From a virus: 64,000 nt of DNA. Position numbers and translations under genes: made by a program. Below are positions 3,001 to 45,322 of this stretch, piece by piece. The notes under the pieces were generated by a model. The model was not told the origin of the DNA. It ran no database searches and saw only the letters and a list, made by a program, of their open reading frames with translations. The first letter of the stretch is position 1. Each line of letters begins with the position of its first letter. Location: the IMG/VR virus record IMGVR_UViG_3300045988_149625. One strand, given 5' to 3'.

Positions 3001-3753
3001 ACAGGACAGCCTAACACTGAAAGCACAACTATTGGAAGTGGCATAGCAATGCCAGACTTATCTAGCTCCGTTAAGGGTTTAGAAAGATTTGACAAAGGTG
3101 TTATTTCTGCAACAGGTGCTATCGCAGAAGATACAGCGGCTACTAAGATAAGCACTGGTGCTACTGATAATTTAAGCAGTGTTACTAAATCCACAGGAAA
3201 TAGCGCAATGCCTGCTTTAATGGCAGCCGTAACCGCTGTAAGTGGTAGTTTAGGAAAATTTGGTACTGTATTACAGACTGTAATGATGATATTGCAGATT
3301 GCGCAAGCAACCCACATTCTTGGACTTGCAGATGGTGGTGCTGTTAGTGGGGCAGGTACAGGTACTAGCGATAGTATTCCTGCTAGATTGTCTAATGGGG
3401 AGTATGTAATAAAGGCAAGTTCTGCAAAGGCTTTAGGTACAAATTTCCTTGACCGCTTAAACAGTGTTGGTGATGGAAGAACAATTCGTAGTGGTAGACT
3501 TCCACGTTTTAAATACGCAGATGGTGGCGAAGTAAGAACAGAGGATAGTCAGCTAGGAAATACAATGCCTATGCAACAGGCAAATGAATTGCCCTCAACA
3601 GTAGGCGTTACTATGAATATGACATTCCAGTCACTTGACCCAGAGGCTAATATGAAGCTGTTTAATAAGCAATATGAGAACTTTAAGAGTAAGTTAATAA
3701 ATGATATTCAGAAAAATACAAGTATGCGAACAGCAATTAGAGGTGTTACATAA
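4..3753 (+). CDS. Tail tape measure protein (5'-partial)
   Basis: 1249-aa ORF open to the window start. It is Ala/Lys/Gln-rich with coiled-coil character, has a Gly/Ser/Thr-rich C-terminal half, and sits immediately upstream of the tail-tip genes. It contains an internal GSVT tandem repeat. Confidence 0.7.
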   Translation: MGLDGRQLVQELRDLVQGGIQASSSTLATALGLTDKDIKAAKQSSEGLFKFLMKRLEGFKQSSTEYGNTLSGMLAQVKEGYALAQAQAVEPLRDAAKGILKDIRDVLYTKDMQINPAFVEGFKEVGNYVLKIWEALKEVGSSFMPAIEAALNIAVPLVKLIVDNLKELTIMFLTWNIAKKVNTLFQIKEATDSVTSSQIAQNKAIEEAEAKYKKAQNAAMDYANSSALKFNAHVEANNQRINTNAIAGQVKMLGSMSNDKSLQLWGEELTKLEGKYQKLGASANEAAKYANLVAEITIKGSKESAKELDREIEKRLEVARAAEKEYQGQIKLEGEKKKNLESTNKLMGKFSVFANVTGGVGDALMSLGLILGLTADKNDESARQTAANIEQFGFLMAMAGNLASTLTNTLVPAIMKAVEWFAKLKLVAAMGGVGAALGKGALVLSPALIAAGAANYFKKDDDPTKIKFDSFESVGAGLWRNYIYNPKAEKEKLEAAAKAAADKKAADEKEMQEQAEKIRQQLAGLELKFPKSPTGGGTKGSAAAGRAADKAARNQAKNAYKVLETALKAEKEAIKQQQLQLESAYKFDLTSTQDYMQTKFKYDSDIIEAEIKNYEKRREIAKSLGQDSDVESFTNKIGELKESAITKYIEYVNDLKDKYKELYDRLDDIKGKYEDIVGVSEEAFKTNLVKEYAADFSRVYAELETAQKGLAKAQEDGNTSDIKAWSTLISKMQVAKQQLEQIVYLRKLERDAQESIARAQNVGLQAQSANLDYQLSTGVHSDFQKESDLWIRSHSDMQSVIDQYRTAIANYTAQLSMANSEERKSQILQNIVDAKQAIKDLMDEVHPLESLIKDNLVSGLSDAFQSIYWGEKSAKEALQDFANTFLQTFTKKMFDTAFDELFGNIFDSISGRNTLDTDVVTNVESRVTVDMTKFQQDVTDAGLTLQQELNGQLIPSFQALNSVIQEILTKAGVTSVGVSGATGISGVTGSVTGSVTGSVTGQPNTESTTIGSGIAMPDLSSSVKGLERFDKGVISATGAIAEDTAATKISTGATDNLSSVTKSTGNSAMPALMAAVTAVSGSLGKFGTVLQTVMMILQIAQATHILGLADGGAVSGAGTGTSDSIPARLSNGEYVIKASSAKALGTNFLDRLNSVGDGRTIRSGRLPRFKYADGGEVRTEDSQLGNTMPMQQANELPSTVGVTMNMTFQSLDPEANMKLFNKQYENFKSKLINDIQKNTSMRTAIRGVT
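2953..3004 (+). repeat. 12-bp tandem repeat (ggtgtcacagga / ggaagtgtcaca, about 4 copies) encoding (GSVT)n inside the tape measure protein
   Basis: Direct reading of 'ggtgtcacaggaagtgtcacaggaagtgtcacaggaagtgtcacagga'. Coordinates are approximate. Confidence 0.8.
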
Positions 3754-4181
3754 TGTTAGGTTTAGATATAACTACAAATACTGATTATAAAGCTGCTGGC
3801 AATTTAGAAGTTTGGGGTATAACTGCTTTACAGTTATACTCCTACACCCTTGAATTTAATACACTTGTTGATGAAAAGTGGACAGGTAATGAACAGCGTA
3901 GGGCGCAGTGGTCAGAACCTAGAAGAACTTGGACACTCAAATTCCAAAAGACACCTGCGGGCGGCAGGAAGTTAGAGGAATTTTTTAAGCAAGTGAAAGG
4001 TAAATATAGAGCTTTTAAATTTAAGTGGGCAAGGATTTATGCAGATGATGGCACTGATAATGGCGGCGACGATAATTGGTATTATGTTAGATTTGACAGT
4101 GACTCCATGCAGTTTACCATGAATTATATGGGGTACAGAGAAGTTTCTATAAATTTAATAGAAGTAAGGAATGGTTCATAA
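3753..4181 (+). CDS. Minor tail protein (gpM-like position)
   Basis: 142-aa ORF directly after the tape measure protein, with its ATG overlapping the tape measure stop codon. Assignment is by gene order only. Confidence 0.35.
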   Translation: MLGLDITTNTDYKAAGNLEVWGITALQLYSYTLEFNTLVDEKWTGNEQRRAQWSEPRRTWTLKFQKTPAGGRKLEEFFKQVKGKYRAFKFKWARIYADDGTDNGGDDNWYYVRFDSDSMQFTMNYMGYREVSINLIEVRNGS

Positions 4182-25571: not shown

Positions 25572-25967
25572 ATGAACAGAAAAGGTGAACTTTCTAATAG
25601 AGTAGCGGCCATCGTAGCTATCGATTACGATACAATTTTTAGTAAAAAACCTTCTTTAAAGGATTTTTTTACGAAAAGTAAGTTACAACGCACCTTTAAG
25701 CAGGAATATAGGGATTTAACCCTAAAGTTGTATTCTGCTGGGTTTAGTATTTATATTATAAGTAAGGATTTAAAAAAGACAAAATCAGAGCTTGACGACT
25801 TGTATTTTGGTAGGTATATATTCTATACAGACTTTATACAGTATGAGAATCTTAATGATTTAGCAGTAGATTGTAGGTCACTTTTTAAATATTTTATTTG
25901 CGAAACCCCAAAAGGTGCGTTTTTAGATAATGTGTATTCCTTAGAGTCTTTCAAGGAGTTGTTATAA
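25572..25967 (+). CDS. Hypothetical protein
   Basis: 131-aa ORF. Confidence 0.3.
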   Translation: MNRKGELSNRVAAIVAIDYDTIFSKKPSLKDFFTKSKLQRTFKQEYRDLTLKLYSAGFSIYIISKDLKKTKSELDDLYFGRYIFYTDFIQYENLNDLAVDCRSLFKYFICETPKGAFLDNVYSLESFKELL

Positions 25968-27223
25968 TGTCAGTAGAAAATAAGTTAATTTTAAAACTCC
26001 TAGAGAGTAAGGATTGGGACGTTGTAGTTGATAAAGGTATTACACAGAACTACTTTACAGGCTCTAACAAACGTGCCTTTAAGTGGATAAGTAACTTCAA
26101 ACTTAACTATGGTACATTACCAGACCTAGATACTTTTAAGAAACACTTCCCTGAAGTAAATCTTCTAGTAGATGCTAGAGAATGTACTGCTTACTATTGC
26201 GACGAGGTTCGTAAGAAGATTAGGCAGAATAAGTTGGTGTCTGTACTAGAGGGGGCTGCGGATAAAATAAATGCAGGTAATGTAGATTCTGTCTATACAG
26301 ATTTAACGAAGTTACTCATGGAAGTCAACACAGAGTTCACTTTTGCCGAGAAAGTGGATATTGGTAGACAGACTGAGGAACGCTTTAAAGAGTACGAGCT
26401 TAATAAGATAACAGGCGGTATGACAGGTATTCCATTAGGTATTTTACCAATAGATAAGCAAACTGGCGGTGTAAAGGATATGGACTTGTACACTTTCCTC
26501 GGAAAATCTGGTTCTGGCAAGAGTTGGATGCTTTGTATTTTAGCTGCCAATCTTATTAAGGCAGGGTATAAAGTAATGCTACTTACTAAAGAAATGTCCC
26601 CTAAACAGCTCTTAAAGCGTATGGATGCTATCATGGCGTGTGTTAGTTATAATGCTTTGAAGAATGGTAAATTACCTGCAAATGAAGAAGCACAGTACAA
26701 AACATACTTAGAACAATACGCTCCTAAATACAAGGACAAACTTAGTATTGAGCTTGTTACAAATGGTGTTGATGAAGCTATCAGTAAAATAGATAACTTT
26801 CAACCAGACATTGCTTTGGTAGATGGCGGTTATCTGTTGAGTGAGGGCGCAGACCCAGAAGATTGGAAAGCAGTTATTGGTGTATGGAAAGCTTTCAAAG
26901 TATTTGCTTTAAGCAGAAAAATACCAGTCATTCTTACATCACAATTAACTGATAAGAATACTGTTGCATACTCAACTGGTTTAAAGCAATATTGTGACGG
27001 TATTTGGGCTATGAAGCAGGACGATGTACAAAGGGCAGCCAAAGAGATTCAAATAGAGAACATTAAGATTCGTGACGGTGAACATTTATTACCCTTTACA
27101 ATGTCTTGGGACTTTTCAAGCTCACCAATGAATTATGAAGTAGTGCATCAAGCATATAACTCTGAAACAAATAAAGGCTTTTTAGTGAAAGATGAGCCAA
27201 TAAGCTTAAAGAAGGTAGAATAG
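25967..27223 (+). CDS. DnaB-like replicative helicase
   Basis: Walker A GKSGSGKSW, and the DnaB-type motif GIPLGILPIDKQTGG upstream of it. Confidence 0.75.
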   Translation: MSVENKLILKLLESKDWDVVVDKGITQNYFTGSNKRAFKWISNFKLNYGTLPDLDTFKKHFPEVNLLVDARECTAYYCDEVRKKIRQNKLVSVLEGAADKINAGNVDSVYTDLTKLLMEVNTEFTFAEKVDIGRQTEERFKEYELNKITGGMTGIPLGILPIDKQTGGVKDMDLYTFLGKSGSGKSWMLCILAANLIKAGYKVMLLTKEMSPKQLLKRMDAIMACVSYNALKNGKLPANEEAQYKTYLEQYAPKYKDKLSIELVTNGVDEAISKIDNFQPDIALVDGGYLLSEGADPEDWKAVIGVWKAFKVFALSRKIPVILTSQLTDKNTVAYSTGLKQYCDGIWAMKQDDVQRAAKEIQIENIKIRDGEHLLPFTMSWDFSSSPMNYEVVHQAYNSETNKGFLVKDEPISLKKVE

Positions 27224-27434: not shown

Positions 27435-28409
27435 ATGTTAGCAGACGAAATGGTTTCTTTGTGTAGAGAGCTAGGTTTGGAAAAAATCAAAGTACGTGGA
27501 GATAATGTTACGTTTTGTTGTCCTTCACATGGCGAGAATAATCCTTCCTGTGGAATCTCTATTACAAAAGAAATTGGAGGTTGTTTTGCTTGTGGATGGC
27601 ACTTCAATTTAATTCAGTTAGTAGCTTTTTGTAAGCAGATTCAAGAATGGGAAGCTATTGAATATCTCAACAGTTATTTTAATCGCGATTTTCGTAAAGT
27701 TGATTGTGCAGGGAAGTTCCCACTTTATAGTGAGGATAAGGCAAGCGTTTCAAGCTTTCTTCCGCACACAGCACTTGCCCCTTTTCGGAGCGGCGAAATT
27801 TCGCACCCATACTTGATAAAGCGTGGTTTTAGTGAGCAAGATTTTATAAATTTTAAGTTAGGGTGGGATAGTAATTTAAAACGTATTACAATTCCTTTCT
27901 ACGATACTAAGGGGAATTTACTAGGTTTTAGCGGTAGAGCGGTTCTAAATGAATCTAATCCGAATTATGGAGTTGTTTATGGTAATTCCCCTAAGTATCT
28001 AATTTATAATAATTTTAAAGCTAAAGACACGTTGTTTCCCCTAAATCTATATAAAAAGTCAGACACGCTTATTTTAGTTGAGGGCTTGTTAGATGCCTTG
28101 TGGCTGCATAAAATGCAGTTTACTAATACGCTTTCCGTTATAAGCGCGCAGATAAGTAGGGCGCAGCTAGAGATTTTAAAATCACTAGACGTTAAAACAA
28201 TTATTCTTTGTCTTGACAATGATAAGTATGGGGAAGCAGGTTGTAAAAAGCTATATGACAATTTAAAAGGCAATTTTGTATTTAAGAAAGTGATTTTTCC
28301 AGAAGGTAAAAAAGACGTTCAAGAATGTACAAAAGAAGAATTAGATTTCATGTTTAAGAATTTGATTAATTATCCAGTGAGAAATTTTAAGTTTTATGAA
28401 GGAGAATGA
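27435..28409 (+). CDS. DNA primase (DnaG-like: zinc-binding plus TOPRIM)
   Basis: CCPSHGENNPSC...CFACGWH zinc finger. TOPRIM acidic motifs (LVEGLLD, LCLDNDKYGE). Confidence 0.7.
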   Translation: MLADEMVSLCRELGLEKIKVRGDNVTFCCPSHGENNPSCGISITKEIGGCFACGWHFNLIQLVAFCKQIQEWEAIEYLNSYFNRDFRKVDCAGKFPLYSEDKASVSSFLPHTALAPFRSGEISHPYLIKRGFSEQDFINFKLGWDSNLKRITIPFYDTKGNLLGFSGRAVLNESNPNYGVVYGNSPKYLIYNNFKAKDTLFPLNLYKKSDTLILVEGLLDALWLHKMQFTNTLSVISAQISRAQLEILKSLDVKTIILCLDNDKYGEAGCKKLYDNLKGNFVFKKVIFPEGKKDVQECTKEELDFMFKNLINYPVRNFKFYEGE

Positions 28410-29208: not shown

Positions 29209-29514
29209 ATGAGAGTAAACGGTGAAATATTTGCAAGGCATATCGCAAGGGTTAATAATGTTTCTATCAAAGAAGGTTGGCGTATCTATAAAGCTTTTAT
29301 GACAGCTTTTTCAGAAACAGTGTCTGAGGGCTGCGACACTTTTGACTTTATAAACTATTTTAGAATCGAGTTTAAAGCTTATAAGGCTAAGGGAATGGAT
29401 TTAGTTCGCCAAGAAACTGTTGAAAGGCAGATTGTGCGTGGAAAGGTAAAGCCATATTCTAAATTACGTAAGCGCATTTTGGAGGCACAAAATGTATCAC
29501 CAAAAGTATTTTAA
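29209..29514 (+). CDS. HU/IHF-like (DNABII family) DNA-binding protein
   Basis: FRIEFKAYKAKGMDLVRQETVERQIVRGKVKPYSKLRKRI matches the HU arm pattern (GFGxFxV..R..RNPxTGE..I..KxPxFKxGK). Confidence 0.4.
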   Translation: MRVNGEIFARHIARVNNVSIKEGWRIYKAFMTAFSETVSEGCDTFDFINYFRIEFKAYKAKGMDLVRQETVERQIVRGKVKPYSKLRKRILEAQNVSPKVF

Positions 29515-31252
29515 ATTACATATTGTTCAAGAAGATACCTTAAATGACTTTTTAAATCTTTTTAAAAAAGCAAAGCAAGTCTTTTGGGACACTGAAACAT
29601 CTGGGTTAAATGTACGTGCTGTAGGTAAAGATTATACAGTAGGCTTTACGTATGCTTTTGATGATACTACATCTAAAGACGTTTTTTACGTTCCTGTAAG
29701 ACATGTGTTCGAGGGAAAATATGAGGATAATGGCAGATTCTCTTTCTTGAAGAAATCACAGCTTGAAAAGTTTCCAGATTTTTGCCCAGAAAAATTTGAA
29801 GGAACTTATTATAATGTAGATTCTTTTAAGTTTGCAGCAGAGCTTAAAACTATTATGGAGCGTGGCGGTAAAGAGTATATCGCACATAATCAAGATTATG
29901 ATTTACATTTACTAGCTAATGAAGGAATTGATATTTATAAAGTCTTTGACGTAAACACTTTTCAAGATACACAAATAATGGTGCATACACTAGATGAGAA
30001 TGTAGAAAAGAATCTTGAAAGTGTTACTAAGATGATTTTTAAAGTTGAAAAGTCGCATTATAGTGATACCATTAAAACTGTTACTAAAGAAGAAAAGCTT
30101 TCACAGGGTTTAAAGGCTACTAATAATGCAAGCTTTCAGCATGTTCAAATTCCAATAGGTGCACAGTATTCAGCAGAGGACGTTTGGTTTATGAAGCAAA
30201 TGTATCCAATGCTTGAAAAAGGTTTAAAAGAAGATGATTCTTATGACATATATCTTAAATGCCGTATGCCTTTTATGAAAGCCCTTTGGAAAATGGAAAG
30301 AAAAGGTGTAAGTGTAGATATTGCTGCCCTGGATAAGATGCAGGAACTTGCGGAGAAAGAATTAGAAAACTCTAAATATAAAATGTTTTCTTTGGCAGGA
30401 GTGGAGTTCAATCCCGATAGTGGACAACATCTTTATGAAATCCTTTTTGGCTTTAAAAAGAAAGTTATGAGGCTTACTCCAAGCGCACAAAATGCTTTTG
30501 AAATGGAAAGTGCTGGATACACTACGACTGAAAAAACTAAGCTTAAAAACTTGTATATGAATGAGCCGTCACATGTAATGTTCGTAGAATCTTGCAATAA
30601 TAATTTAGTAGATGTAAACTTTGGCTTTAAACCAATAGAGTTTACAACAGGCGGTAAGTATGGCTATGAAGAGTTACAAACGCCGAAAACAGGTGGAGAT
30701 ATTTTAAAAGCATTGTTAAAGCAGAAAAATGTTGATGCAAAAGCGCATGATTTTATTACAGAGCTTGTAACTTATAAAAAACTCTCTAAACTTATTAGTG
30801 CATTTATGATAGGGTTAAGAGAGAATATTTATAGTGATGGCAAAGTGCATTGTAGCTTGAATTTAACAGGAACAGATTCGTGGCGAATTAGTAGTCAGAT
30901 GCCGAATCTCCAGCAGCTACCGCACCCACTAGAAGAGCCGAAAGCGGGGGAAGATAGAACCTACTTTGATTTTTGGGAACGGTTTGAAATAAGAAAACTG
31001 TTTATAGCCGATGAAGGTTATAGTGTAATAGCTTGCGACTATCATGCTTTGGAGAAATACTTAACGGCGCATTTGTCACAAGATAAGATGCTTTTAAAGA
31101 TGTTGAGGGAGAATTTAGACCCGCACGGTACAGTTGCAACTATCGTTTTTCCAGAACTTGCAAACATGAATCCAAATGACGTAAAGAAGCGTGAGCCTGC
31201 TAAAAGGCAAATTGCAAAAAAAATAGGCTTCGCTAAAGGTATGGTGAAGTAA
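29492..31252 (+). CDS. polA: DNA polymerase I (family A), exon 1 (3'-5' exonuclease plus polymerase motifs A and B)
   Basis: Exo I motif FWDTETSGL. Motif A CDYHALEKYLTAHLSQD. Motif B RQIAKKIGFA is truncated by an in-frame stop at 31250. Exon sequence probably ends near 31234. Confidence 0.8.
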   Translation: MYHQKYFKLHIVQEDTLNDFLNLFKKAKQVFWDTETSGLNVRAVGKDYTVGFTYAFDDTTSKDVFYVPVRHVFEGKYEDNGRFSFLKKSQLEKFPDFCPEKFEGTYYNVDSFKFAAELKTIMERGGKEYIAHNQDYDLHLLANEGIDIYKVFDVNTFQDTQIMVHTLDENVEKNLESVTKMIFKVEKSHYSDTIKTVTKEEKLSQGLKATNNASFQHVQIPIGAQYSAEDVWFMKQMYPMLEKGLKEDDSYDIYLKCRMPFMKALWKMERKGVSVDIAALDKMQELAEKELENSKYKMFSLAGVEFNPDSGQHLYEILFGFKKKVMRLTPSAQNAFEMESAGYTTTEKTKLKNLYMNEPSHVMFVESCNNNLVDVNFGFKPIEFTTGGKYGYEELQTPKTGGDILKALLKQKNVDAKAHDFITELVTYKKLSKLISAFMIGLRENIYSDGKVHCSLNLTGTDSWRISSQMPNLQQLPHPLEEPKAGEDRTYFDFWERFEIRKLFIADEGYSVIACDYHALEKYLTAHLSQDKMLLKMLRENLDPHGTVATIVFPELANMNPNDVKKREPAKRQIAKKIGFAKGMVK

Positions 31253-31648
31253 AATTCCTCTCATAACGGTGAAAGCCATTAAGATTGCCATAACTTAATG
31301 GTCAACGCCGTGCCGAACTTCTTTGTAAAAAGACGGTGTAACGACTTATAATGTATCGCTATACTTTAAGTATAAATCTTACGAATACATTTAATGGGGA
31401 ACATGAACTATGTAAGAAGTGCCATCAAAAAGAGCATCATGCAGTTACCTATTTACTTTGTGATTGCGATGGCAATGTATTACATACGTTGATTAGTAAA
31501 AAGAGTGTGTTAAAGTTTTTAAATAGCCTTGGTTACTTTCCTAAAGATACAAGTGGTATTAGAGGGGTTATTAGAAATAAAACTAAAATATATGGTTTTT
31601 ACTGGCAGCGAGTTCTAAAGGCATAGTCTGACACCAGTAGTAATACTG
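31235..31648 (+). mobile_element. Intervening sequence in polA (group-I-intron-like) carrying an HNH homing endonuclease
   Basis: Motif B and the following QKYIDRYF helix are separated by ~415 bp containing stop codons and a free-standing ORF. P7-like R/S elements (gtaacgact ... atagtct) are present. Boundaries are approximate. Confidence 0.6.
31351..31626 (+). CDS. HNH homing endonuclease with AP2-like DNA-binding domain (intron-encoded)
   Basis: CKKCHQKEHH is an HNH-type Cys/His motif. GIRGVIRNKTKIYGFYWQ is AP2-like. Confidence 0.55.
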   Translation: MYRYTLSINLTNTFNGEHELCKKCHQKEHHAVTYLLCDCDGNVLHTLISKKSVLKFLNSLGYFPKDTSGIRGVIRNKTKIYGFYWQRVLKA

Positions 31649-32173
31649 GACAACGGACTGGTAGATTATGGCGGCACTTCTGTTGCGGTAAGTAAGAATT
31701 TGGATGTAGACCAAAAGACAGCACAGAAATACATTGACCGTTATTTTGAAGGTTTCTATGGTTTGCATACTTATGATAAAGCTGTAATACGTTTTGCACA
31801 GTCAAATGGGTTTGTAAAGACGCTTGGTGGACATAAAAGGCATTTATGGGATATTAACAGCAGTGATAAGAAAGTATCTTCTTACTTAGAGCGTGTTGCA
31901 GTAAATGTAATGAGCCAGGGTGCAGGTGGGGACGTAGCAATGTTTGCTACATTAGATGTTGACCGCGACCCAGTGCTTAAAGCAATAGGTGCATACTTAT
32001 TTTTAAATGTACACGATGAGTTAGGCTTAATGTGTCCAACTAAATACGTGGAGCTTGGAATGGAGCGTTTACAATATCATATGGAACATTGTTTACAGAA
32101 CCGTGGAATTAATCTGACAATTCCTTTGGAGGCAGTCCCAGATTATGGGCATAGCTATTATGATGCAAAATAA
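31649..32173 (+). CDS. polA: DNA polymerase I (family A), exon 2 (motif C)
   Basis: The frame is open from 31619. LVDYGGTSVAVSKNLDVDQKTAQKYIDRYF aligns to the post-motif-B segment of Pol I, and VHDELGL is motif C. The ORF track begins at a TTG at 31700, but the true exon start is upstream and approximate. Confidence 0.7.
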   Translation, partial: DNGLVDYGGTSVAVSKNLDVDQKTAQKYIDRYFEGFYGLHTYDKAVIRFAQSNGFVKTLGGHKRHLWDINSSDKKVSSYLERVAVNVMSQGAGGDVAMFATLDVDRDPVLKAIGAYLFLNVHDELGLMCPTKYVELGMERLQYHMEHCLQNRGINLTIPLEAVPDYGHSYYDAK

Positions 32174-32176
32174 GAG

Positions 32177-33247
32177 GTGAAAATAGTGGTAGAAATTGAT
32201 AAATTAGTTAAAGATATTAATAAGAAGTTTGGTACAAATGCAATAAGATTGGGACGAAATATTAGAGAGGATATGAATTTTAAAATCCCCTTAGGCAGTG
32301 TTGGTTTAAATGACGCATTGGGCGGTGGACTTCCGAGTGGGCGTTATATCACACTTGCAGGGCAGGAAAGCAGCGGTAAAAGCTTACTTGCTTATAAAGC
32401 TATTGCTGCTGTGCAGAATCTGCGCAAAAAATTGGTTGGGGAAGGTGCAGATGCCTATGAGGTTGTTGCAGATGATGGTGACACTCCTTTAACCGCAGCA
32501 CTTATTCAGCTTGAATGTGGTAGTTATTCCCCAGATTGGGGCGAAGTCCACGGTATTGACAATGATAGATTAATATTTGTACAGCCAGAGGGTATGGAAC
32601 AGGCTTTAGACCTTGCCTGTGCTCTCCAACGTGCTGGGGTTGAATTTATTGTCATTGATAGTATTGCAGCAATGCTGCCTACTAAAGAGATTGAAACAGA
32701 CCAAGAGGACACTGTACAAATGGGACTTAGGGCAAAGGCTTTAAATGTTTTTCATGGCAAGTTTCAAAGTATTAACAACTCCTTAGAAAGAAATGGTAAA
32801 TTGCCTACTACTTTATTGGCAATTAATCAGTTACGTGAAAAGATTGGTGCTTATGGTAATCCATTGTACGCACCTGGGGGTAGTAGCCAAAAATTCACCA
32901 ATGCTATTGAAATTCGTACACGTGTAGGTGATATTATTCGTGAGGGTACTGGCGTAAACGCTAGAACCGTGGGAAGGATTATTAAGTGGAAGATTGAGAA
33001 AAATAAAACAGGTAAGGCTTTTAGTGACGGAGAATATGACCTTTATGTAGATGATGCACTACTTCCAAGAGGAAGCATTGATACAGGCAAAGAGTTGGTT
33101 ATTCTTGCAATGTCTAAAGGCTTGATTGAGCGCCGTGGTGGTTGGTTCTATTATAATGGTGAGCAGCTGGGGCAAGGACAGGACAATGTAGTTGCTAAAT
33201 TAAGAGAGAACCAAGAACTGTTCATGGAGATTGTTGAGAAGTTATAG
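32177..33247 (+). CDS. recA: RecA-family recombinase
   Basis: GGGLPSGRYITLAGQESSGKS (Walker A in RecA context) and VIDSIAAMLP (Walker B region). Confidence 0.75.
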   Translation: MKIVVEIDKLVKDINKKFGTNAIRLGRNIREDMNFKIPLGSVGLNDALGGGLPSGRYITLAGQESSGKSLLAYKAIAAVQNLRKKLVGEGADAYEVVADDGDTPLTAALIQLECGSYSPDWGEVHGIDNDRLIFVQPEGMEQALDLACALQRAGVEFIVIDSIAAMLPTKEIETDQEDTVQMGLRAKALNVFHGKFQSINNSLERNGKLPTTLLAINQLREKIGAYGNPLYAPGGSSQKFTNAIEIRTRVGDIIREGTGVNARTVGRIIKWKIEKNKTGKAFSDGEYDLYVDDALLPRGSIDTGKELVILAMSKGLIERRGGWFYYNGEQLGQGQDNVVAKLRENQELFMEIVEKL

Positions 33248-33457: not shown

Positions 33458-33929
33458 AAATAAGAAGATGAGTGAAGCCCATGAGAGATTCATTGCAGAA
33501 TCTCTCAACGGCAAAACCACGATTGCTAGTGGAGCACTTTGGATGGCAAAATCAGATGTAGTTACTTCCCTTTATCAGATAGAGTGCAAAGCTACTCGGA
33601 AAAATTACTATATCTTAAAATCAAAAATTGTAGAGAAGATTAGAGGGGAGGCATTGAAAAGTGGTAGGATTCCTTTACTCGCTATTCGGTGTTCTCTTGG
33701 TGACTTTATACTTTTTAGGGTTTATGATTTCTTTACAGAAATTACGGAAACATCTTTAAAGTGTAGTAGCTCTTTAAAGATTACACAGGATATTTTTGAA
33801 GGTTTGTTTGAAGGTTTTAGAGAGATTGATGTAAATGGCAATGTTTGGGGTTTAATAAGATTAACGGATTTTCAATTTTATATAGACGGAGGTACGGATG
33901 AAGATAAAAGGAAGCTTAAAAAATATTAA
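33444..33929 (+). CDS. PD-(D/E)XK nuclease, Hjc-like Holliday junction resolvase
   Basis: AHERFIAESLNG...SGALW...DVV...IECKAT fits the archaeal Hjc pattern (ER..L..G...SG..DV...IExK). The start was set to the internal ATG at 33444, in frame with ORF 33309. Confidence 0.45.
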   Translation: MVQTENKKMSEAHERFIAESLNGKTTIASGALWMAKSDVVTSLYQIECKATRKNYYILKSKIVEKIRGEALKSGRIPLLAIRCSLGDFILFRVYDFFTEITETSLKCSSSLKITQDIFEGLFEGFREIDVNGNVWGLIRLTDFQFYIDGGTDEDKRKLKKY

Positions 33930-34779
33930 TAAAATTTCCAATGATACAGCGGATAAGTTACTTATTCCTGCTATTGAAGAAACTTTGCGTAATTTAAAAG
34001 CAGGTGTTGATAGAGGACATGGTTGGAACAGTCCTAGTAGCGTTGGTTATTGTAGTAGAAGTGTTTACTTTGGACGTATAGGTTTACCGCCAGACTTTCC
34101 TAGTAACGAACCACGTTTACAGCGAATCTTTGACAATGGTACTTATACACATATTCGCTTACAGAATTATCTTCTGCAAAGTGGTGTTCTTTTAGCAGAT
34201 GAAGCCCCTTTATATGATAAAGCTTATCAAATTATGGGAACAACAGATGGTTTGCTTTTAGATAAAGATAGGTCTATTGCAGTGCTTGAAATTAAAAGCA
34301 TTAATTCTATGGGATTTGCGGGGCTTAAAGATGCAAAACCAGAACATAAGATGCAGGCAAGTATCTACATGTATTGTTTAAATACTATGCGTAATTTAAT
34401 CTTATTAGGAAAGCGCAAAGAGTTAGAACAAGAGTATCTATATAAACTAGATTCTTTTTTGGAAGATACTACCTCTTTAGACGGAAAAGTGCATTTCAAA
34501 AAGGATAAGGTAAACAGCAGGTTTAAAGATTTTAAGAACACCCTTGACTTTTTAGAACAATACCCAAAACCTATAAAAAAAGTTATATTTCTTTATGAGA
34601 ATAAGGATACACAAGAGTTGAAAGAGTTTGCTTATACAGATAAGGCAGCCACTACTAAAGCTCTTAAAAAGTTCTCGGCTATAAACGACGCTGTTAGGGG
34701 GCGAAAAGTTCCAGCAGCAGAAAAGACATTTATGTGTAATGGCTGCCATTATAGAAAGGTGTGTGCTAATTATGATTGA
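33898..34779 (+). CDS. Cas4/RecB-like PD-(D/E)XK exonuclease with Fe-S cysteines
   Basis: DGLLLD...LEIKS core. N-terminal Cys (GYCSRS) plus C-terminal CNGCHYRKVC is the DUF83/Cas4 four-Cys pattern. Confidence 0.5.
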   Translation: MKIKGSLKNINKISNDTADKLLIPAIEETLRNLKAGVDRGHGWNSPSSVGYCSRSVYFGRIGLPPDFPSNEPRLQRIFDNGTYTHIRLQNYLLQSGVLLADEAPLYDKAYQIMGTTDGLLLDKDRSIAVLEIKSINSMGFAGLKDAKPEHKMQASIYMYCLNTMRNLILLGKRKELEQEYLYKLDSFLEDTTSLDGKVHFKKDKVNSRFKDFKNTLDFLEQYPKPIKKVIFLYENKDTQELKEFAYTDKAATTKALKKFSAINDAVRGRKVPAAEKTFMCNGCHYRKVCANYD

Positions 34780-40466: not shown

Positions 40467-41063
40467 ATGACTAATATTATATGTATGAGTGGCGGTTATG
40501 ACAGTACCGTACTTTATGATTATCTGAAAAAAGATGAACATTTAGATTTAAAGGTTTACCATGCGCTTTATACTAAAGTTGAAGGTGGCACATATAATTT
40601 AAATGAGTTTAAACGTCTTTCACAAAAGTTTAATAATGAAATAGATTATTTAGCGCACTTTAACTTACATTTATTAGGTGAGGATTACATTCCGAACAGA
40701 AACACTCTATTTGTAATGGATATCATTGCAAAGCTTTATGTTGGAGAGCCTTTAAATATTTACCTGGGAATTATTAAGAATTTTCCTAGATACCCAGACT
40801 GTACACATGAATGGTTGGAGGCTCTTAATTCATTTTTAAGCATTGAATTTCCAAATGTTAAAGTTTTAGCACCCTTTATAGACCTTACAAAAGACGATGT
40901 TTTCAAGATTGGATGCAAGCTTGGCGTAAAATTAGAGGATACTTTTTCATGTAACTTTTCTGATAATGGTGAGCCTTGCGGTGTTTGTGAGAATTGTAAA
41001 TGGCGCGCAGCGCATATGTACCCTAGTTATTTTTTGAAGGAGGGGAATGAAATTGGCAAATAA
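40467..41063 (+). CDS. queC: 7-cyano-7-deazaguanine synthase QueC
   Basis: PP-loop SGGYDST, NRNT, YPDC, and the C-terminal zinc motif CGVCENCKWR. Confidence 0.75.
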   Translation: MTNIICMSGGYDSTVLYDYLKKDEHLDLKVYHALYTKVEGGTYNLNEFKRLSQKFNNEIDYLAHFNLHLLGEDYIPNRNTLFVMDIIAKLYVGEPLNIYLGIIKNFPRYPDCTHEWLEALNSFLSIEFPNVKVLAPFIDLTKDDVFKIGCKLGVKLEDTFSCNFSDNGEPCGVCENCKWRAAHMYPSYFLKEGNEIGK

Positions 41064-41271
41064 ATCTAATTCGGAGAAGAAAAATTCTGTTCCGCAGATT
41101 AAAATTGCAGCAAGAAGTGTTGAAAAGACTAAAGGTGGATTTTTAAGTATTAAGCAGGGAAGAACAGGCGACACAAATAACTTACAGACTAATCCATATT
41201 ATAGATTTATGAATAGAACTTCTTGGAAAACTAAGAATAAAAAAGGCATTACACCTTGGGGGCGTATTTAA
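41047..41271 (+). CDS. Small basic protein
   Basis: 74-aa Lys/Arg-rich ORF. Confidence 0.25.
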   Translation: MKLANKSNSEKKNSVPQIKIAARSVEKTKGGFLSIKQGRTGDTNNLQTNPYYRFMNRTSWKTKNKKGITPWGRI

Positions 41272-43166
41272 AAATGAAAGGTGATTTTACGCTTTTATTA
41301 TCTGGTGTTGAGCCTAAGGAAAACTGGGAAGTAGCATCTTCTGTAACAAAGAATGTGCTACTTTCCTATAAGTATATTCGTAAACGTGGATTAGATGAAA
41401 TTGTAAAGCGTTTAAAGTCCCATAGGGGAATGAAAGTTTTAATTGATAGTGGTGCTTATACATTCTTTAATGATAAAGAGTTTAATAATAAGACTATTGA
41501 ATGGTGGGAAGATTATTTAGTAAAGTATATTAACTTTATACGTGAGTACCGTGACTATATCTTTGCCTGCGTGGAACTAGATATTGATAGTATTGTTGGC
41601 GAGGATATTGTAGAAGGTTGGCGTGAAAAGTATTTCTACCCATTAGAAAGAGAAGGAATAAATGTTATTTATCTTTATCATTTAGATAAAGATTTATCGC
41701 ATTTTGAAAAGCTTTGTAAGCAGCATCCTTATGTTGGATTTTCGTACATGGAGATAAAGCATACTATTGAGGATATGGGGGAAAGAGAAAATCTCATTTC
41801 ACAACTATTCCAAATAGCTAAAAGGTATAAATCTGCTATTCATGGTTTTGCAATTACAGGTAATAAGCTACTATTGAGTTATCCATTCTTTTCCGCAGAT
41901 TCTACTACGTATTTAACAGGTGCGCAATTTGGTACAATTACCTACTTTGAAGCAGGTCAAATGAAGCATCTTGAAAAAACACAGTGGAAAACAGAATATA
42001 TGGAAAAACTAAAGGCGTTGGGGTTAAAGGAGAAATTGCTTGAAATAGAATCTCCTTATGAGCTTATAAGAGCAAATGCCATTAGCTATAAGAAATTTGA
42101 AGAATACGTTAAAAATGTTATGCGGCCACAAAAATATTGGGAAGCACGTTCAAACACTAAATACTCTATTCCAGATGCATCATGGTTTGAAGGGGATATG
42201 CAAGATTGGCAGGAACGCTTAGAACTAGCAGGAATTGATACAAACATTCCTCAAACAGCGGGTGAAACAATTTTACATGATGCTTATATTTTTCTAAATG
42301 AGCCTAAAGAAGCCAAGAATTATGAACTTGACGACCTTGTGGGTTTATGTGCAATGTTTGGTGCAACAGGTGCAAACTATAATACAAAAGATAAGTGTAT
42401 AAAGTTTTTGCAGGAAGCTTTCAAAGAACATGTTGACGGTATGCGAAACGAGTTGTCAAATTTGCAGAATCCAGAAGAGGGGCAGCGTATAGCACTTGAA
42501 CGTGAGGACTATATTACAGAGAAAGAGTATTTAGAGGTTGAAATGAGTAGGGAAGAATGTGGAGAACTTCTACCTGCATTATTAACTTCTGGATATGATA
42601 AAGATGATGTTGAAAAATCTTTAATAGAACAAGGTATTAAACCAATCTATGATAAAAATGGTAATATCTTAAAAGGTATCAAAAAGGTTAAGCGACAGAA
42701 AAAGCTTTCCACAAGGGCTTTGCCTAGACTTTCTTGTGATAGATGCGTAATGGCAGCAAACTGTACAGAGTACCAAGCAGGATATATTTGTGCATACGAT
42801 AAAATGTTCCGCAGATTTAACACCAGGGAACAAGAAGATGTTATACAGGGAATGACAGCTATTGCTGATTTAGCAATAGAACGTGCTCAAAAAGCCTTTA
42901 TGCTTGAAACAGCTATGGGTGGGACACCTACAAAGGCTACTTCACAGGCAATGCAGGATGCTTTTGGATATTTAACTAAGTTAAAAGAATTGCAAGATGA
43001 AGTAAAAGGACGACCAGTTATGGTTTCACAAACAAAAATCAAGGGCGGCAGTATCGAACAAACTGTTGTTCATGGTGCTAATCCTCAATCTGGCGGCATT
43101 TTAGAGCGAATTTTTATGGAAGATACAGACGATGAAAAAACAGTAGAAGCGGAGGTAGTTAAATGA
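41256..43166 (+). CDS. dpdA: DpdA / tRNA-guanine-transglycosylase-like protein (7-deazaguanine DNA insertion enzyme candidate)
   Basis: TGT-fold signature VLLSYKY...VLIDSGAYTF (compare TGT DSGGFQ). The C-terminus has a Cys cluster (CDRCVMAANC...C). It is co-located with QueC and QueE-like genes. Confidence 0.5.
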   Translation: MGAYLKMKGDFTLLLSGVEPKENWEVASSVTKNVLLSYKYIRKRGLDEIVKRLKSHRGMKVLIDSGAYTFFNDKEFNNKTIEWWEDYLVKYINFIREYRDYIFACVELDIDSIVGEDIVEGWREKYFYPLEREGINVIYLYHLDKDLSHFEKLCKQHPYVGFSYMEIKHTIEDMGERENLISQLFQIAKRYKSAIHGFAITGNKLLLSYPFFSADSTTYLTGAQFGTITYFEAGQMKHLEKTQWKTEYMEKLKALGLKEKLLEIESPYELIRANAISYKKFEEYVKNVMRPQKYWEARSNTKYSIPDASWFEGDMQDWQERLELAGIDTNIPQTAGETILHDAYIFLNEPKEAKNYELDDLVGLCAMFGATGANYNTKDKCIKFLQEAFKEHVDGMRNELSNLQNPEEGQRIALEREDYITEKEYLEVEMSREECGELLPALLTSGYDKDDVEKSLIEQGIKPIYDKNGNILKGIKKVKRQKKLSTRALPRLSCDRCVMAANCTEYQAGYICAYDKMFRRFNTREQEDVIQGMTAIADLAIERAQKAFMLETAMGGTPTKATSQAMQDAFGYLTKLKELQDEVKGRPVMVSQTKIKGGSIEQTVVHGANPQSGGILERIFMEDTDDEKTVEAEVVK

Positions 43167-45322
43167 GAAAATTAGCAAGTGTAGAAATTATAGATAAATT
43201 AGAGCCTATCCCAAATGCTGATAGAATTTTAAAAGCAACTGTAAAAGGTTGGGAATGTGTTGTAAGTAAGAGTGACAACTTTCAGCAAGGCGATAAAGTA
43301 GTGTATATTGAAGTAGATTCTGTTCTCCCTGCAAGACCAGAATTTGCCTTCCTTAAAGACAGAAAGTACCGCATTAAGACTATTAAGTTGCGTAAACAGA
43401 TTTCACAAGGTTTGATTCTGCCTTTAAGTTACTTGCCAAACAAAGAATACGCTGTTGGGGAAGATGTAACTAAAATATTGAATATTAAGAAATTTGACCC
43501 GCAGCTTGAAGCAGAGAATAAAATCATGGCAGTTGCTGCCCCAAAAGGAAGATTCACATTCTTATGGAAGCCTTTAATGCGTTTCCGTTGGTTTAGACGC
43601 TTATATGCAAAATTCCATGTACAGAATGAAAAGTTCCCTACTTACATTGCAAGCAAGACTGATGAAGAACGCTGGCAGAATATTACTGACAAGCTTGAAC
43701 AATGGAGAGATACAAATGTCCCCCTGATTTGTACAGAGAAGGTCGACGGCTGCCATTCATACAGAAGTAGTGTAATTACAAATAAGGGGTTCTTGCCAAT
43801 AGGTAAAATTGTAAATGAAAAACTTGATGTGGAAGTTCTTACTTATAATGAAGAATCCAAATGTTGTGAGTTTAAACCTATTATAGATTATCATAAAATC
43901 TTATGTACAAAGCCTACATACCGCATTGGTGTAGGAAGTCGTGGTAAGGGAAATAAGCCTAAATATATTGAGTGTACCTCTAACCATGAATTTTTAACAC
44001 AAGACGGCTGGAAGCAAGCGGATGAGCTTACTTTAGATGATACTCTAATGCACTATTTTTCTGTTATTAACTATGATATTCAAAGTATTATCTTAGGCTG
44101 CTTACTAGGGGATAGCAGCATTAATGGCAATAGAAAAGGTACATCTTACTTAACTGTACTGTTTGGGCACTCTGAAAAACAAGTAGAATATTTTAATTAT
44201 AAGAAGCAGCTTTTTGGAAATCTTTTTATTGAACAAAAGGATACTTTAAGTGGATATGGCAGTGTAATTAAACATGGTATTTTACGTTCCAATGAGGGTG
44301 TTCGTAGACTTATTGAGGAGTATTGTTTGGTAGATGATAAATTTGCGGTAACACAAAAATATTGCGATGCTTTAACACCTATGTCATTGGCATTTTGGTA
44401 TATGGACGACGGAAGCCTTTTAACAGGTACTTTACGACCAAAAGCAATTTTAAATACGCAAGCATATGATTTAAATACTATCAAAATGCTTGTAGAAACC
44501 TTACGTAACCGCTTTGGTTTAGAGGCATTTATTGGAGATAAAGAAGTTTATAAAGGATACGTTATTTATTTCTCTGTGGAATCTACCCTTAAATTTGCAC
44601 AATTAATTGCCCCCTATGTATGCGAAAGTATGAGATATAAATTACCAGAACAGTATAGAAGTTATGGATGTGCTTTAAATAGTGTAAATACAGAAGTGCA
44701 AGATATTTTACCCACAAAAATTCTCTCCATTGAAGAGTTTGAAGCAGGTCATTTTGGCAAGCATATGTATGATTTAACTATTCAAGATAATCATAATTAT
44801 TTTGTACATAGTATTTTAACTCATAATTGTTCCTCAACCTTCTTTTTAGACGGCGGCACTTTTGGGGTTTGCAGTAGAAATATTTGGCTACGTAAGGAAG
44901 ATAATTCGCCCTATTGGGAAATTGCAAGACGCTTTCAGATTGAGGAAGCTTTAAAGGAGATTCAAAAGTGCTTTGGTTTTAGAAAAATTGTTTTACAAGG
45001 TGAGATTATTGGGCAAAATATCCAAGCTAATAAATATAAGATTAGCGGGTATGATTTTTATGCCTATAATTTAATCCTTGACGGCATTAAAGTTTCACAA
45101 GTAAAAATGGAAGAGCTTCTTAAAGAATTTCGCATTAAAACAGTGCCTGTAGTTTATAAGCATATCAATGTGCCAAGTGACTTACAGACCTTAAACAATC
45201 TTGCGAGTGGTAAAAGTGTATTACTTGATACACAAGAGCGTGAAGGTATCGTTTGCAGAAATTATGAGCAGGGGATTTCTTTTAAAGCGATTTCCCCAAC
45301 TTTCTTGCTAAAAGAAGAATAA
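43163..45322 (+). CDS. ATP-dependent RNA/DNA-ligase-family nucleotidyltransferase containing an intein
   Basis: KxDG motif TEKVDG is directly followed by an intein. The extein resumes CSSTFFLDGG. Confidence 0.55.
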   Translation: MRKLASVEIIDKLEPIPNADRILKATVKGWECVVSKSDNFQQGDKVVYIEVDSVLPARPEFAFLKDRKYRIKTIKLRKQISQGLILPLSYLPNKEYAVGEDVTKILNIKKFDPQLEAENKIMAVAAPKGRFTFLWKPLMRFRWFRRLYAKFHVQNEKFPTYIASKTDEERWQNITDKLEQWRDTNVPLICTEKVDGCHSYRSSVITNKGFLPIGKIVNEKLDVEVLTYNEESKCCEFKPIIDYHKILCTKPTYRIGVGSRGKGNKPKYIECTSNHEFLTQDGWKQADELTLDDTLMHYFSVINYDIQSIILGCLLGDSSINGNRKGTSYLTVLFGHSEKQVEYFNYKKQLFGNLFIEQKDTLSGYGSVIKHGILRSNEGVRRLIEEYCLVDDKFAVTQKYCDALTPMSLAFWYMDDGSLLTGTLRPKAILNTQAYDLNTIKMLVETLRNRFGLEAFIGDKEVYKGYVIYFSVESTLKFAQLIAPYVCESMRYKLPEQYRSYGCALNSVNTEVQDILPTKILSIEEFEAGHFGKHMYDLTIQDNHNYFVHSILTHNCSSTFFLDGGTFGVCSRNIWLRKEDNSPYWEIARRFQIEEALKEIQKCFGFRKIVLQGEIIGQNIQANKYKISGYDFYAYNLILDGIKVSQVKMEELLKEFRIKTVPVVYKHINVPSDLQTLNNLASGKSVLLDTQEREGIVCRNYEQGISFKAISPTFLLKEE
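43751..44827 (+). mobile_element. Intein (359 aa) with LAGLIDADG homing endonuclease
   Basis: N-terminal Cys (CHSYRSSVITNKGFLPIGKIV, block A). LAGLIDADG blocks ILGCLLGDSS and LAFWYMDDGS. C-terminal FVHSILTHN followed by C+1. Confidence 0.75.

Follow-up and report, generated by a model that had tools for sequence, protein, structure and literature searches.

How a complete product could be made from a family-A DNA polymerase (PolA) gene whose coding sequence is broken in two, and what the small open reading frame (ORF) lying in the break might be, are the questions raised by positions 29492-32173 (+ strand) of IMG/VR virus record IMGVR_UViG_3300045988_149625. We analyzed this record as a single stretch of 64,000 nucleotides (nt), referred to as the window, which resembles a phage genome and has its long ORFs almost all on the + strand. 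An earlier note, made from the DNA letters alone, had proposed that the polymerase is split within motif B by a group I-like intron carrying an HNH-AP2 homing endonuclease, and all of the sequence features that it described were found in place. Our analysis leads us to conclude with high confidence that a group I intron does split PolA and that the endonuclease gene within it is a largely deleted remnant.

The upstream frame (29492-31252) encodes 586 amino acids, ending in ...KRQIAKKIGFAKGMVK before a stop codon, and matched the Pfam DNA_pol_A profile up to position 216 of 381 (expectation value (E) 1.4e-32); the downstream frame matched the same profile from position 219 (E 1.5e-30). This break in the profile at 216/219 means that the gene is cut cleanly inside motif B, as had been proposed. 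The downstream frame reopens at 31628 and reads LVDYGG from 31658, ∼406 nt past the stop of the upstream ORF. Stop codons lie in frame at 31250-52 and at 31625-27, so the insert cannot be an intein, and here too our results agree with the earlier note.

To place the boundaries, we retrieved four relatives of the window polymerase from IMG/VR. L002 (99% protein identity) has the same 426-nt insert, L003 (96% protein identity and 94% nt identity over the spliced gene) has a 743-nt insert, L005 (64% protein identity) has an ORF-less insert of 234 nt, and L004 (65% protein identity) has no insert. The L004 gene is contiguous across the site (...AAGATAGGCTTTGCTGTAGATTATGGAGGC...; ...AAGATAGGCTTTGCTGTAGATTATGGA..., encoding KIGFAVDYGG); its junction reads ...GGCTTTGCT/GTAGATTAT..., corresponding to KIGFA/VDYGG, with GCT/GTA at the insertion point, and the intron-less target that it would present to the endonuclease can be written as ...AAAAAGATAGGCTTTGCTGTAGATTATGGAGGCACG... 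or as ...GGCTTTGCTGTAGATTATGG.... Because L004 without and L005 with the insert are 96.5% identical in nt sequence over the spliced gene, the element is a presence/absence polymorphism within one phage lineage. Further, the bases flanking the insert differ from those just inside it, so that the boundaries cannot be slid and the element is exactly 31235-31660 (426 nt). The extent given in the earlier note, in which exon 1 ran to its stop codon, is corrected accordingly: the exon 1 frame continues 6 codons into the intron. An alternative 5' splice site after GGCTT was rejected, as its guide would fall inside P4/P5 (helices are denoted P and joining segments J throughout) and the intron-less allele contradicts it. 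No co-conversion tract was visible around the insertion site when the window clade was compared with L004 and L005.

The insertion lies between the ...GFA and VDYG... codons in motif B (the O-helix region) of the polymerase, which we take to be equivalent to the boundary between codons 763 and 764 of Escherichia coli Pol I, judging from the motif B residues K758, F762, and Y766. The gene should be annotated as join(29492..31234, 31661..32173), with a 751-amino acid product. Exon 1 (29492..31234, + strand, 581 codons) comprises the 3'-5' exonuclease domain, motif A, and the first half of motif B, ends in ...AKKIGFA, and matches Pfam DNA_pol_A_exo1 and DNA_pol_A profile positions 55-216; exon 2 (31661..32173, + strand) starts with VDYGGTS..., completes motif B, and adds motif C (VHDE) and the stop codon (DNA_pol_A positions 219-380). 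Removal of 31235-31660 leaves the 751 codons open, with no internal stop, and creates AKKIGFAVDYGG, which equals in length and spacing AKTINFLLVYGG of Bacillus phage BCD7, the nearest relative in culture (30-40% amino acid identity), whose polymerase has no interruption. A megablast search with the polymerase gene against 50,697 phage records gave no match. An active polymerase very probably requires splicing, as the two halves can be rejoined only through RNA.

Next we asked how the intron RNA folds. Further introns were gathered through the endonuclease protein and through a J6/7-P7 sequence pattern; exact-pattern scans of IMG/VR with two other core strings returned mostly chance matches, the real ones being three known contigs, and the third pattern (J6/7-P7) was the productive one. 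Nine introns, with the ORF in the P8 loop trimmed out, were aligned, and RNAalifold, with no structure supplied, returned P1, P3, P4, P5, P6, P6a, a long helix between P7 and the 3' strand of P3 (P7.1), and P9; of the 48 pairs in this fold, 26 show compensatory changes. When the P7 pseudoknot was added, 26 of 54 pairs were changed on both sides compared with 3-9 in slid controls, standard pairs filled 96.9% of the cells compared with 36-45% in slid controls, and none of 500 shuffles matched the observed pairing and covariation values. P7 itself is invariant in all nine introns and so neither adds to nor removes from the covariation support. The minimum-energy fold of 31224-31412 alone contained the same helices (z = -3.0).

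In window coordinates (all on the + strand), the P1 hairpin spans 31227..31250 and is also present in the minimum-energy fold: cuucgcU at the end of exon 1 (31228-31234) pairs at seven of seven positions with the guide GGUGAAG (31243-31249), placing the wobble pair U31234•G31243 at the 5' splice site. This pair is conserved in all 10 alleles, and P1 is identical in all of them. The 5' strand of P3 (uuccuc, 31255..31260) pairs with its 3' strand (ggggaa, 31396..31401), with four of six pairs covarying and 100% of the cells paired. P4-P5-P6-P6a (31266..31337), with a GUAA loop in L6a, is seen in the Rfam alignment, the minimum-energy fold, and the covariation alike. J6/7 with the 5' strand of P7 (GU..GACU) occupies 31338..31346 and pairs with 31625-31632, within the segment formed by J8/7 (uaaaggcau) and the 3' strand of P7 (AGUC..AC) at 31616..31632, which was placed by the Rfam alignment; the P7-like strings picked out in the earlier note, gtgtaacgact (31336-31346) and atagtctgacacc (31623-31635), are indeed the two P7 strands. 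Between P7 and the 3' strand of P3 lie P7.1 and P7.2 (31350..31391), an outer helix of 9 bp, in which six of nine pairs covary and which the minimum-energy fold contains, and, enclosed by it, a variable inner hairpin, the naming of which as P7.1 and P7.2, respectively, is our own assignment. Comparison of sequences placed P8, with gaacu (31405..31409) complementary to aguuc (31611..31615), and equivalents checked by eye in relatives are gaaug/cauuc, agacu/agucu, ggag/cucc, and gauaa/uuauc. The P9 hairpin (ccagua GUAA uacugg, 31634..31649) covaries in five of six pairs, and the terminal intron base, ωG at 31660, is set by comparison with the intron-less allele; G is the last base in each of the 10 related introns. 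P2 is absent. Because P7.1/P7.2 is an IA2 criterion (PMC3428280), the intron appears to be of subgroup IA, IA2-like.

Consistent with this fold, Rfam model RF00028 (Intron_gpI), run in E-value mode, matched 31266-31346 (P4-P6, J6/7, and the 5' strand of P7; 11.8 bits) and 31480-31650 (J8/7, the 3' strand of P7, and P9; 20.9 bits, E 0.006), aligning the 31266-31337 domain to model positions 60-147, and the full-length model aligned to the ORF-less L005 intron with 37.6 bits (E 2.6e-8). At the gathering threshold, the whole window returned nothing. The Rfam scan proposed in the earlier note thus came out empty by the default score and gave partial matches in E-value mode, and its proposal of a group I-like intron is strongly supported by these subthreshold but significant matches together with the exact junction of the intron-less allele and the covariation-backed fold. 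A family covariance model of the intron 5' half (R1) scored 139 bits on the window intron (E 5e-33) and found no other convincing copy over the window, nor a second intron within the window polymerase. A second R1 match, at 41057-41211 (13.4 bits, E 0.26), was rejected: it lies inside a 74-codon ORF, has many nonstandard pairs, and has no Rfam intron signal. That ORF (41049-41273, + strand; MKLANKSNSEKKNS...) has a strong ribosome-binding site, GAAGGAGGGGAATG, and stands between two longer ORFs.

Splicing would proceed as follows. In the folded pre-mRNA, the last exon bases (cuucgcU) would pair with the guide GGUGAAG, presenting U31234•G31243 at the 5' splice site; exogenous guanosine in the P7 binding site would attack after U31234; the terminal G31660 would then take the G site, and the 3'-OH of exon 1 would attack after G31660. 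Ligation would join ...GGCTTCGCT to GTAGATTAT... and give the 751-amino acid polymerase. P10, the pairing that would guide exon 2, varies together with exon 2 among the relatives: in L072, exon 2 (AAAGTTTA) is matched by the guide segment TAAACTT (uaaacuu/aaguuua).

We then turned to the ORF inside the intron. As described in the earlier note, it is free-standing (31351..31626, + strand, 91 amino acids) and contains CKKCHQKEHH and GIRGV...KIYGFYWQ. The 743-nt intron of L003 carries an intact ORF of 177 amino acids at this place (MKERVCEYCGN...CEICGSIKNLVVHHRDGNRQNNEDTNLQVLCKKCHQKEHH...), with complete HNH core features, a PHROG HNH match (E 3.8e-13), and matches to Pfam HNH_3 (E 5e-5) and HNH just under the cut-offs. 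Block alignment with the L003 intron revealed that the window intron has a 317-nt deletion between two TATG repeats, the scar being the TATG microhomology at 31409..31412. The deletion took the start region, the N-terminal zinc ribbon-like part, the first CxxC (the deleted part held CEICGS...LVVHHRDGNRQNNEDTN), the HH general base, and the Asn residues, and left of the HNH motif ...LCKKCHQKEHH, i.e. the last CxxCHxxxH. As 317 cannot be divided by three, the deletion threw the tail out of the frame of the original ATG (31410-12), which now stands directly before a TAA. An AUG further upstream, at 31351, shares the frame of the tail, and the ORF thus consists of 20 codons of an upstream frame running over P7.1, P7.2, and the 3' strand of P3 followed by 71 codons of the HNH C-terminal part. 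The AUG is within the outer helix P7.1, in a conserved UAUAAUG segment, and the stop codon (TAG, 31624-26) overlaps the J8/7-P7 3' element; the upstream frame is not conserved, having 20 codons in L003, ∼30 in L005, and 5 in L070. The intron would, in this history, once have carried a 177-amino acid HNH homing endonuclease gene in its P8 loop, of which the deletion would have left 71 C-terminal codons fused in frame to 20 codons of ribozyme sequence.

Of the HNH-AP2 label given in the earlier note, the last CxxCHxxxH of an HNH gene stood, and the remainder did not. The 91-amino acid ORF had no significant HNH match in Pfam or PHROG (best phrog_119, E 0.084), the rest of the HNH core being deleted, and neither it nor the 177-amino acid form had an AP2 match at E up to 10. 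The AP2 profile covers ∼60 residues, three β strands and then a helix, after a conserved YRG element; 19 residues follow the GIRGV motif to the end of the protein, too few for an AP2 domain. GIRGV is, moreover, a private variant of the window: the most frequent alleles have GIRRA, and further ones have GIRVA or SIRMA. At 31563-31568 (codons 52-53 of the remnant region), the position that gives the "RGV" reading in the window, one codon varies to an unusual degree among otherwise near-identical alleles, as GGG, ATG, GTG, or AGG (G, M, V, or R).

A predicted structure of the full-length homologue (predicted local distance difference test (pLDDT) 76, predicted template modeling score 0.42) has a C-terminal domain of β-β-α-α-β topology (pLDDT ∼90). 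A Foldseek search of the PDB with this model returned nothing at E < 0.001, and no AP2 structure was among the top 50 PDB fold matches, in a search that was weak overall; a PDB sequence search with the endonuclease gave weak matches to the HNH core, including I-HmuI (1u3e, E 0.034). By analogy with two-domain HNH homing endonucleases, the C-terminal domain may bind DNA. A NUMOD1-type helix-turn-helix, which we had suspected in the C-terminal tail, was confirmed by no search and was set aside.

Comparison of alleles points to decay. Nonsynonymous to synonymous changes number 6:2, 4:2, and 9:2 in the remnant ORF and 4:17 and 1:13 in the flanking exons; the leftover HNH residues vary among alleles (CHQEEHH, CHQEGHH, and CNKC), and in the L069 allele W65 has become a premature stop, which explains the 84-amino acid forms. 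The remnant therefore seems to be evolving without constraint, and the 91-amino acid ORF is most likely an inactive, decaying remnant, present with its exact window sequence in NCBI, IMG, and ENA as "hypothetical protein". The window copy of the intron probably cannot home by itself but could spread in trans via the intact endonuclease of co-infecting sister phages.

Related phages, in fact, display every stage of the homing endonuclease cycle. L004 has no intron; L003, L070, L071, and L072 have an intact endonuclease gene; L068 has a nonsense mutation and a frameshift in it; the window, L002, and L069 have the 317-nt deletion; and L005, L079, and 11 contigs similar to the latter have an ORF-less intron. 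The host is a phage of roughly 100 kb known from metagenomes. In public data, the deleted form is represented by 116 and the intact form by 136 distinct sequences (90% identity), with single variants on up to 272 and 47 contigs, respectively, and with contigs of up to 110 kb. All endonuclease homologues found lie in PolA genes that are split at this codon boundary, which follows (G/N)FA and the bases TTCGCT; among them are P0006, P0007, and P0008, which are 57, 55, and 47% identical, respectively. The phage hosting P0008 (L072-L074) has a different gene neighborhood, and its exon 2 starts with KVYGQ rather than VDYGG.

In three introns with an intact endonuclease gene, the 3' strand of P3 doubles as the Shine-Dalgarno sequence of that gene (GGGGAA, GGGGGA, and GGAGGA in L003, L070, and L071, respectively), and the AUG is in or beside the 5' strand of P8 (L003, 7860-7922; L070, ∼3946-4003; L071, ∼2440-2455). 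The start of translation should therefore be hidden once the ribozyme has folded, which suggests that folding restrains translation of the endonuclease. In L003, the 20-codon upstream frame ends in a TGA overlapping the endonuclease ATG (ATGA).

Some of the results weigh against our conclusion that PolA is split by a group I intron with an endonuclease remnant. Splicing is deduced here from sequence. The generic Rfam model scored both the window (20.9 bits) and L005 (37.6 bits) below its gathering score of 50 bits, a score that is, however, an operational threshold and not a defining property of the intron class. P10 has just 3 bp in the window lineage compared with 6-7 bp in relatives, and exon ligation may consequently be less well guided. 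Finally, the 91-amino acid ORF stays open in many of the public variants, among them the one on 272 contigs, and may therefore have a residual function. On the last point, we considered that the ORF may be a domesticated protein consisting of the DNA-binding domain only, and not debris; it might, for instance, shield the intron-plus allele by binding the homing site, compete with the intact endonuclease of co-infecting sister phages, or aid splicing. Selection could then account for an ORF that is open in >100 public variants and on hundreds of contigs, but we regard this as quite unlikely.

Could the polymerase instead be naturally split, with a 586-amino acid N-terminal and an ∼157- to 170-amino acid C-terminal polypeptide made separately and assembling without splicing? 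Both reading frames are intact, and split or "fractured" genes are found in phages (PMC2677866). However, the first possible start of the C-terminal polypeptide, a TTG at 31700, is preceded by no Shine-Dalgarno sequence and would leave out VDYGGTSVAVSKN of motif B; the spacer is RNA of conserved structure and heavy covariation, more than an ordinary intergenic spacer would call for; and intron-less and intron-bearing alleles coexist in genes as alike as L004 and L005. We therefore consider separate translation extremely improbable. The same low standing, in our view, belongs to a dead intron that no longer splices in a defective phage with a broken polymerase. The weak P10 and an endonuclease gene already degenerate are what one would expect of it, but all core helices are intact in the window copy, whose ribozyme core differs outside the deletion by one base (in the P6a region) from that of the endonuclease-intact L003. 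Both exons are under purifying selection (13-33 synonymous compared with 1-6 nonsynonymous changes), and the same deletion allele recurs on hundreds of contigs, up to 110 kb long, as fits a replicating lineage.

That the 91-amino acid ORF encodes an active HNH-AP2 homing endonuclease, making this intron copy autonomously mobile, is very unlikely. Such activity would accord with the retention of CKKCHQKEHH, with the well-predicted C-terminal domain of the full-length homologue model, and with an ORF kept open in many metagenomic variants, but the protein is without the HH general base, Asn, and first CxxC of the intact form and has no significant HNH or AP2 match; its first 20 residues come from the nonconserved upstream frame; its AUG is inside a helix and has no Shine-Dalgarno sequence; and its residual motif mutates, with nonsynonymous changes outnumbering synonymous ones and one allele carrying a stop.

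Since SPO1, group I introns that carry HNH genes have been known from the family-A polymerase genes of phages. In E. coli Pol I numbering, the introns of SPO1, SP82, Bastille, and Pf-WMP3 are at site 674, that of phiL7 is at 676, and those of PhiI and W31 are at 881; all of these listed phage polymerase introns are IA2, and the Pf-WMP3 intron, modeled on PhiI/W31, is without P2 (PMC3428280). The window intron is of the same kind as those of SPO1 (I-HmuI), SP82 (I-HmuII), Bastille (I-BasI), cyanophage Pf-WMP3 (I-PfoP3I), T7-like PhiI/W31, and Xanthomonas phiL7, which are self-splicing group IA2 introns in a conserved and critical region of phage PolA, and shares with them the lack of P2 and the presence of P7.1/P7.2; theirs carry an HNH homing endonuclease gene (PMC3428280), whereas the window copy holds a remnant only. 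The ORF is in the P8 loop in the window intron but in P6a in Pf-WMP3, PhiI, and W31, and the window endonuclease lineage resembles I-HmuI weakly and in the HNH core only. The window site, in motif B and by our own mapping presumably equivalent to 763/764, differs from sites 674, 676, and 881. To the generic Intron_gpI model, the likeness extends over the full length in the ORF-less relative and over P4-P6, J6/7-P7, and J8/7-P7'-P9 in the window. Among the Bastillevirinae, split polymerase genes make up nearly half, and HNH genes that are partial or frameshifted occur there too (PMC11878797). The T4 nrdB intron with its defunct I-TevIII is a splicing-competent intron in which the endonuclease gene was inactivated by deletion, with intact relatives (PMC1865063 and PMC2790892), and the window series is comparable to it and to the homing endonuclease life cycle of invasion, fixation, endonuclease decay, and intron loss; the host gene, the intron lineage, and the endonuclease lineage are different, and the evidence for the window comes from metagenomes only.

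A junction-spanning query against cultured phages showed the site to be uninterrupted in nearly every sampled record, the exception being Enterococcus phage vB_EfaM_LG1 (MZ420150, an unannotated record), in which an insert of ∼473 nt at 2028-2500 occupies the same boundary (NFG/IAYG; AAC TTC GGT, insert, ATT GCA TAT GGT). Neither R1 nor Rfam Intron_gpI matched this insert, and because the family model does not recognize it, insertion at this site has occurred on more than one occasion. Strings resembling P1 and P7 are present in the insert, as is a match to the Rfam "drum RNA" (RF02958) at 2232-2328 (47.5 bits, gathering score 43). A related intron was also seen in a T7-like PolA on the reverse strand of IMGVR_UViG_3300002163_000219 (∼2719-3390 of the reverse complement), two codons upstream of the window site (spliced KFIT/FGIMYG); this intron has an HNH ORF of its own within a long P8 and an R1 score of 121.7 bits. 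In 11 contigs of L070-like phages in IMG/VR (L084, L095, L097, L103, L105, L112, L116, L117, L119, L120, and L123), a second, weaker intron model match (∼31 bits, E ∼5e-5) lies 0.6-1.1 kb upstream of the motif B intron on the same strand and probably represents a further group I intron of that polymerase gene.

The window intron leaves the current understanding of phage introns unchanged, this kind of element having long been known in phage polymerase genes. What it adds is an intron in the O-helix (motif B) as one more occupied site in phage family-A polymerases, for which PMC3428280 lists three other sites. In the examples found, one lineage of intron and endonuclease always occupies this codon boundary, in polymerases that otherwise resemble each other only distantly, and the metagenomic relatives form a natural series of endonuclease decay in near-identical phages, usable for the study of intron gain, decay, and loss in uncultured phages. 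The locus also matters for annotation: gene callers and Rfam at default thresholds would yield a shortened polymerase, a "hypothetical protein," and a C-terminal fragment standing by itself, and automatic Rfam annotation would miss the intron.

The polymerase gene lies in a replication module, with a DnaB-like helicase (25967-27223) and a DnaG-type primase (27435-28409) upstream and RecA (32177-33247) and a Cas4/PD-(D/E)XK nuclease (33898-34779) downstream. Further along, at 43163-45322 (+ strand), the window encodes a 719-amino acid RNA ligase (PHA02142 OB-fold, residues 4-88; RNA_ligase, residues 556-709) interrupted by an intein (Intein_splicing, residues 214-555) that carries a LAGLIDADG_2 homing endonuclease (residues 308-478), a second mobile element in the window, this one at the protein level.

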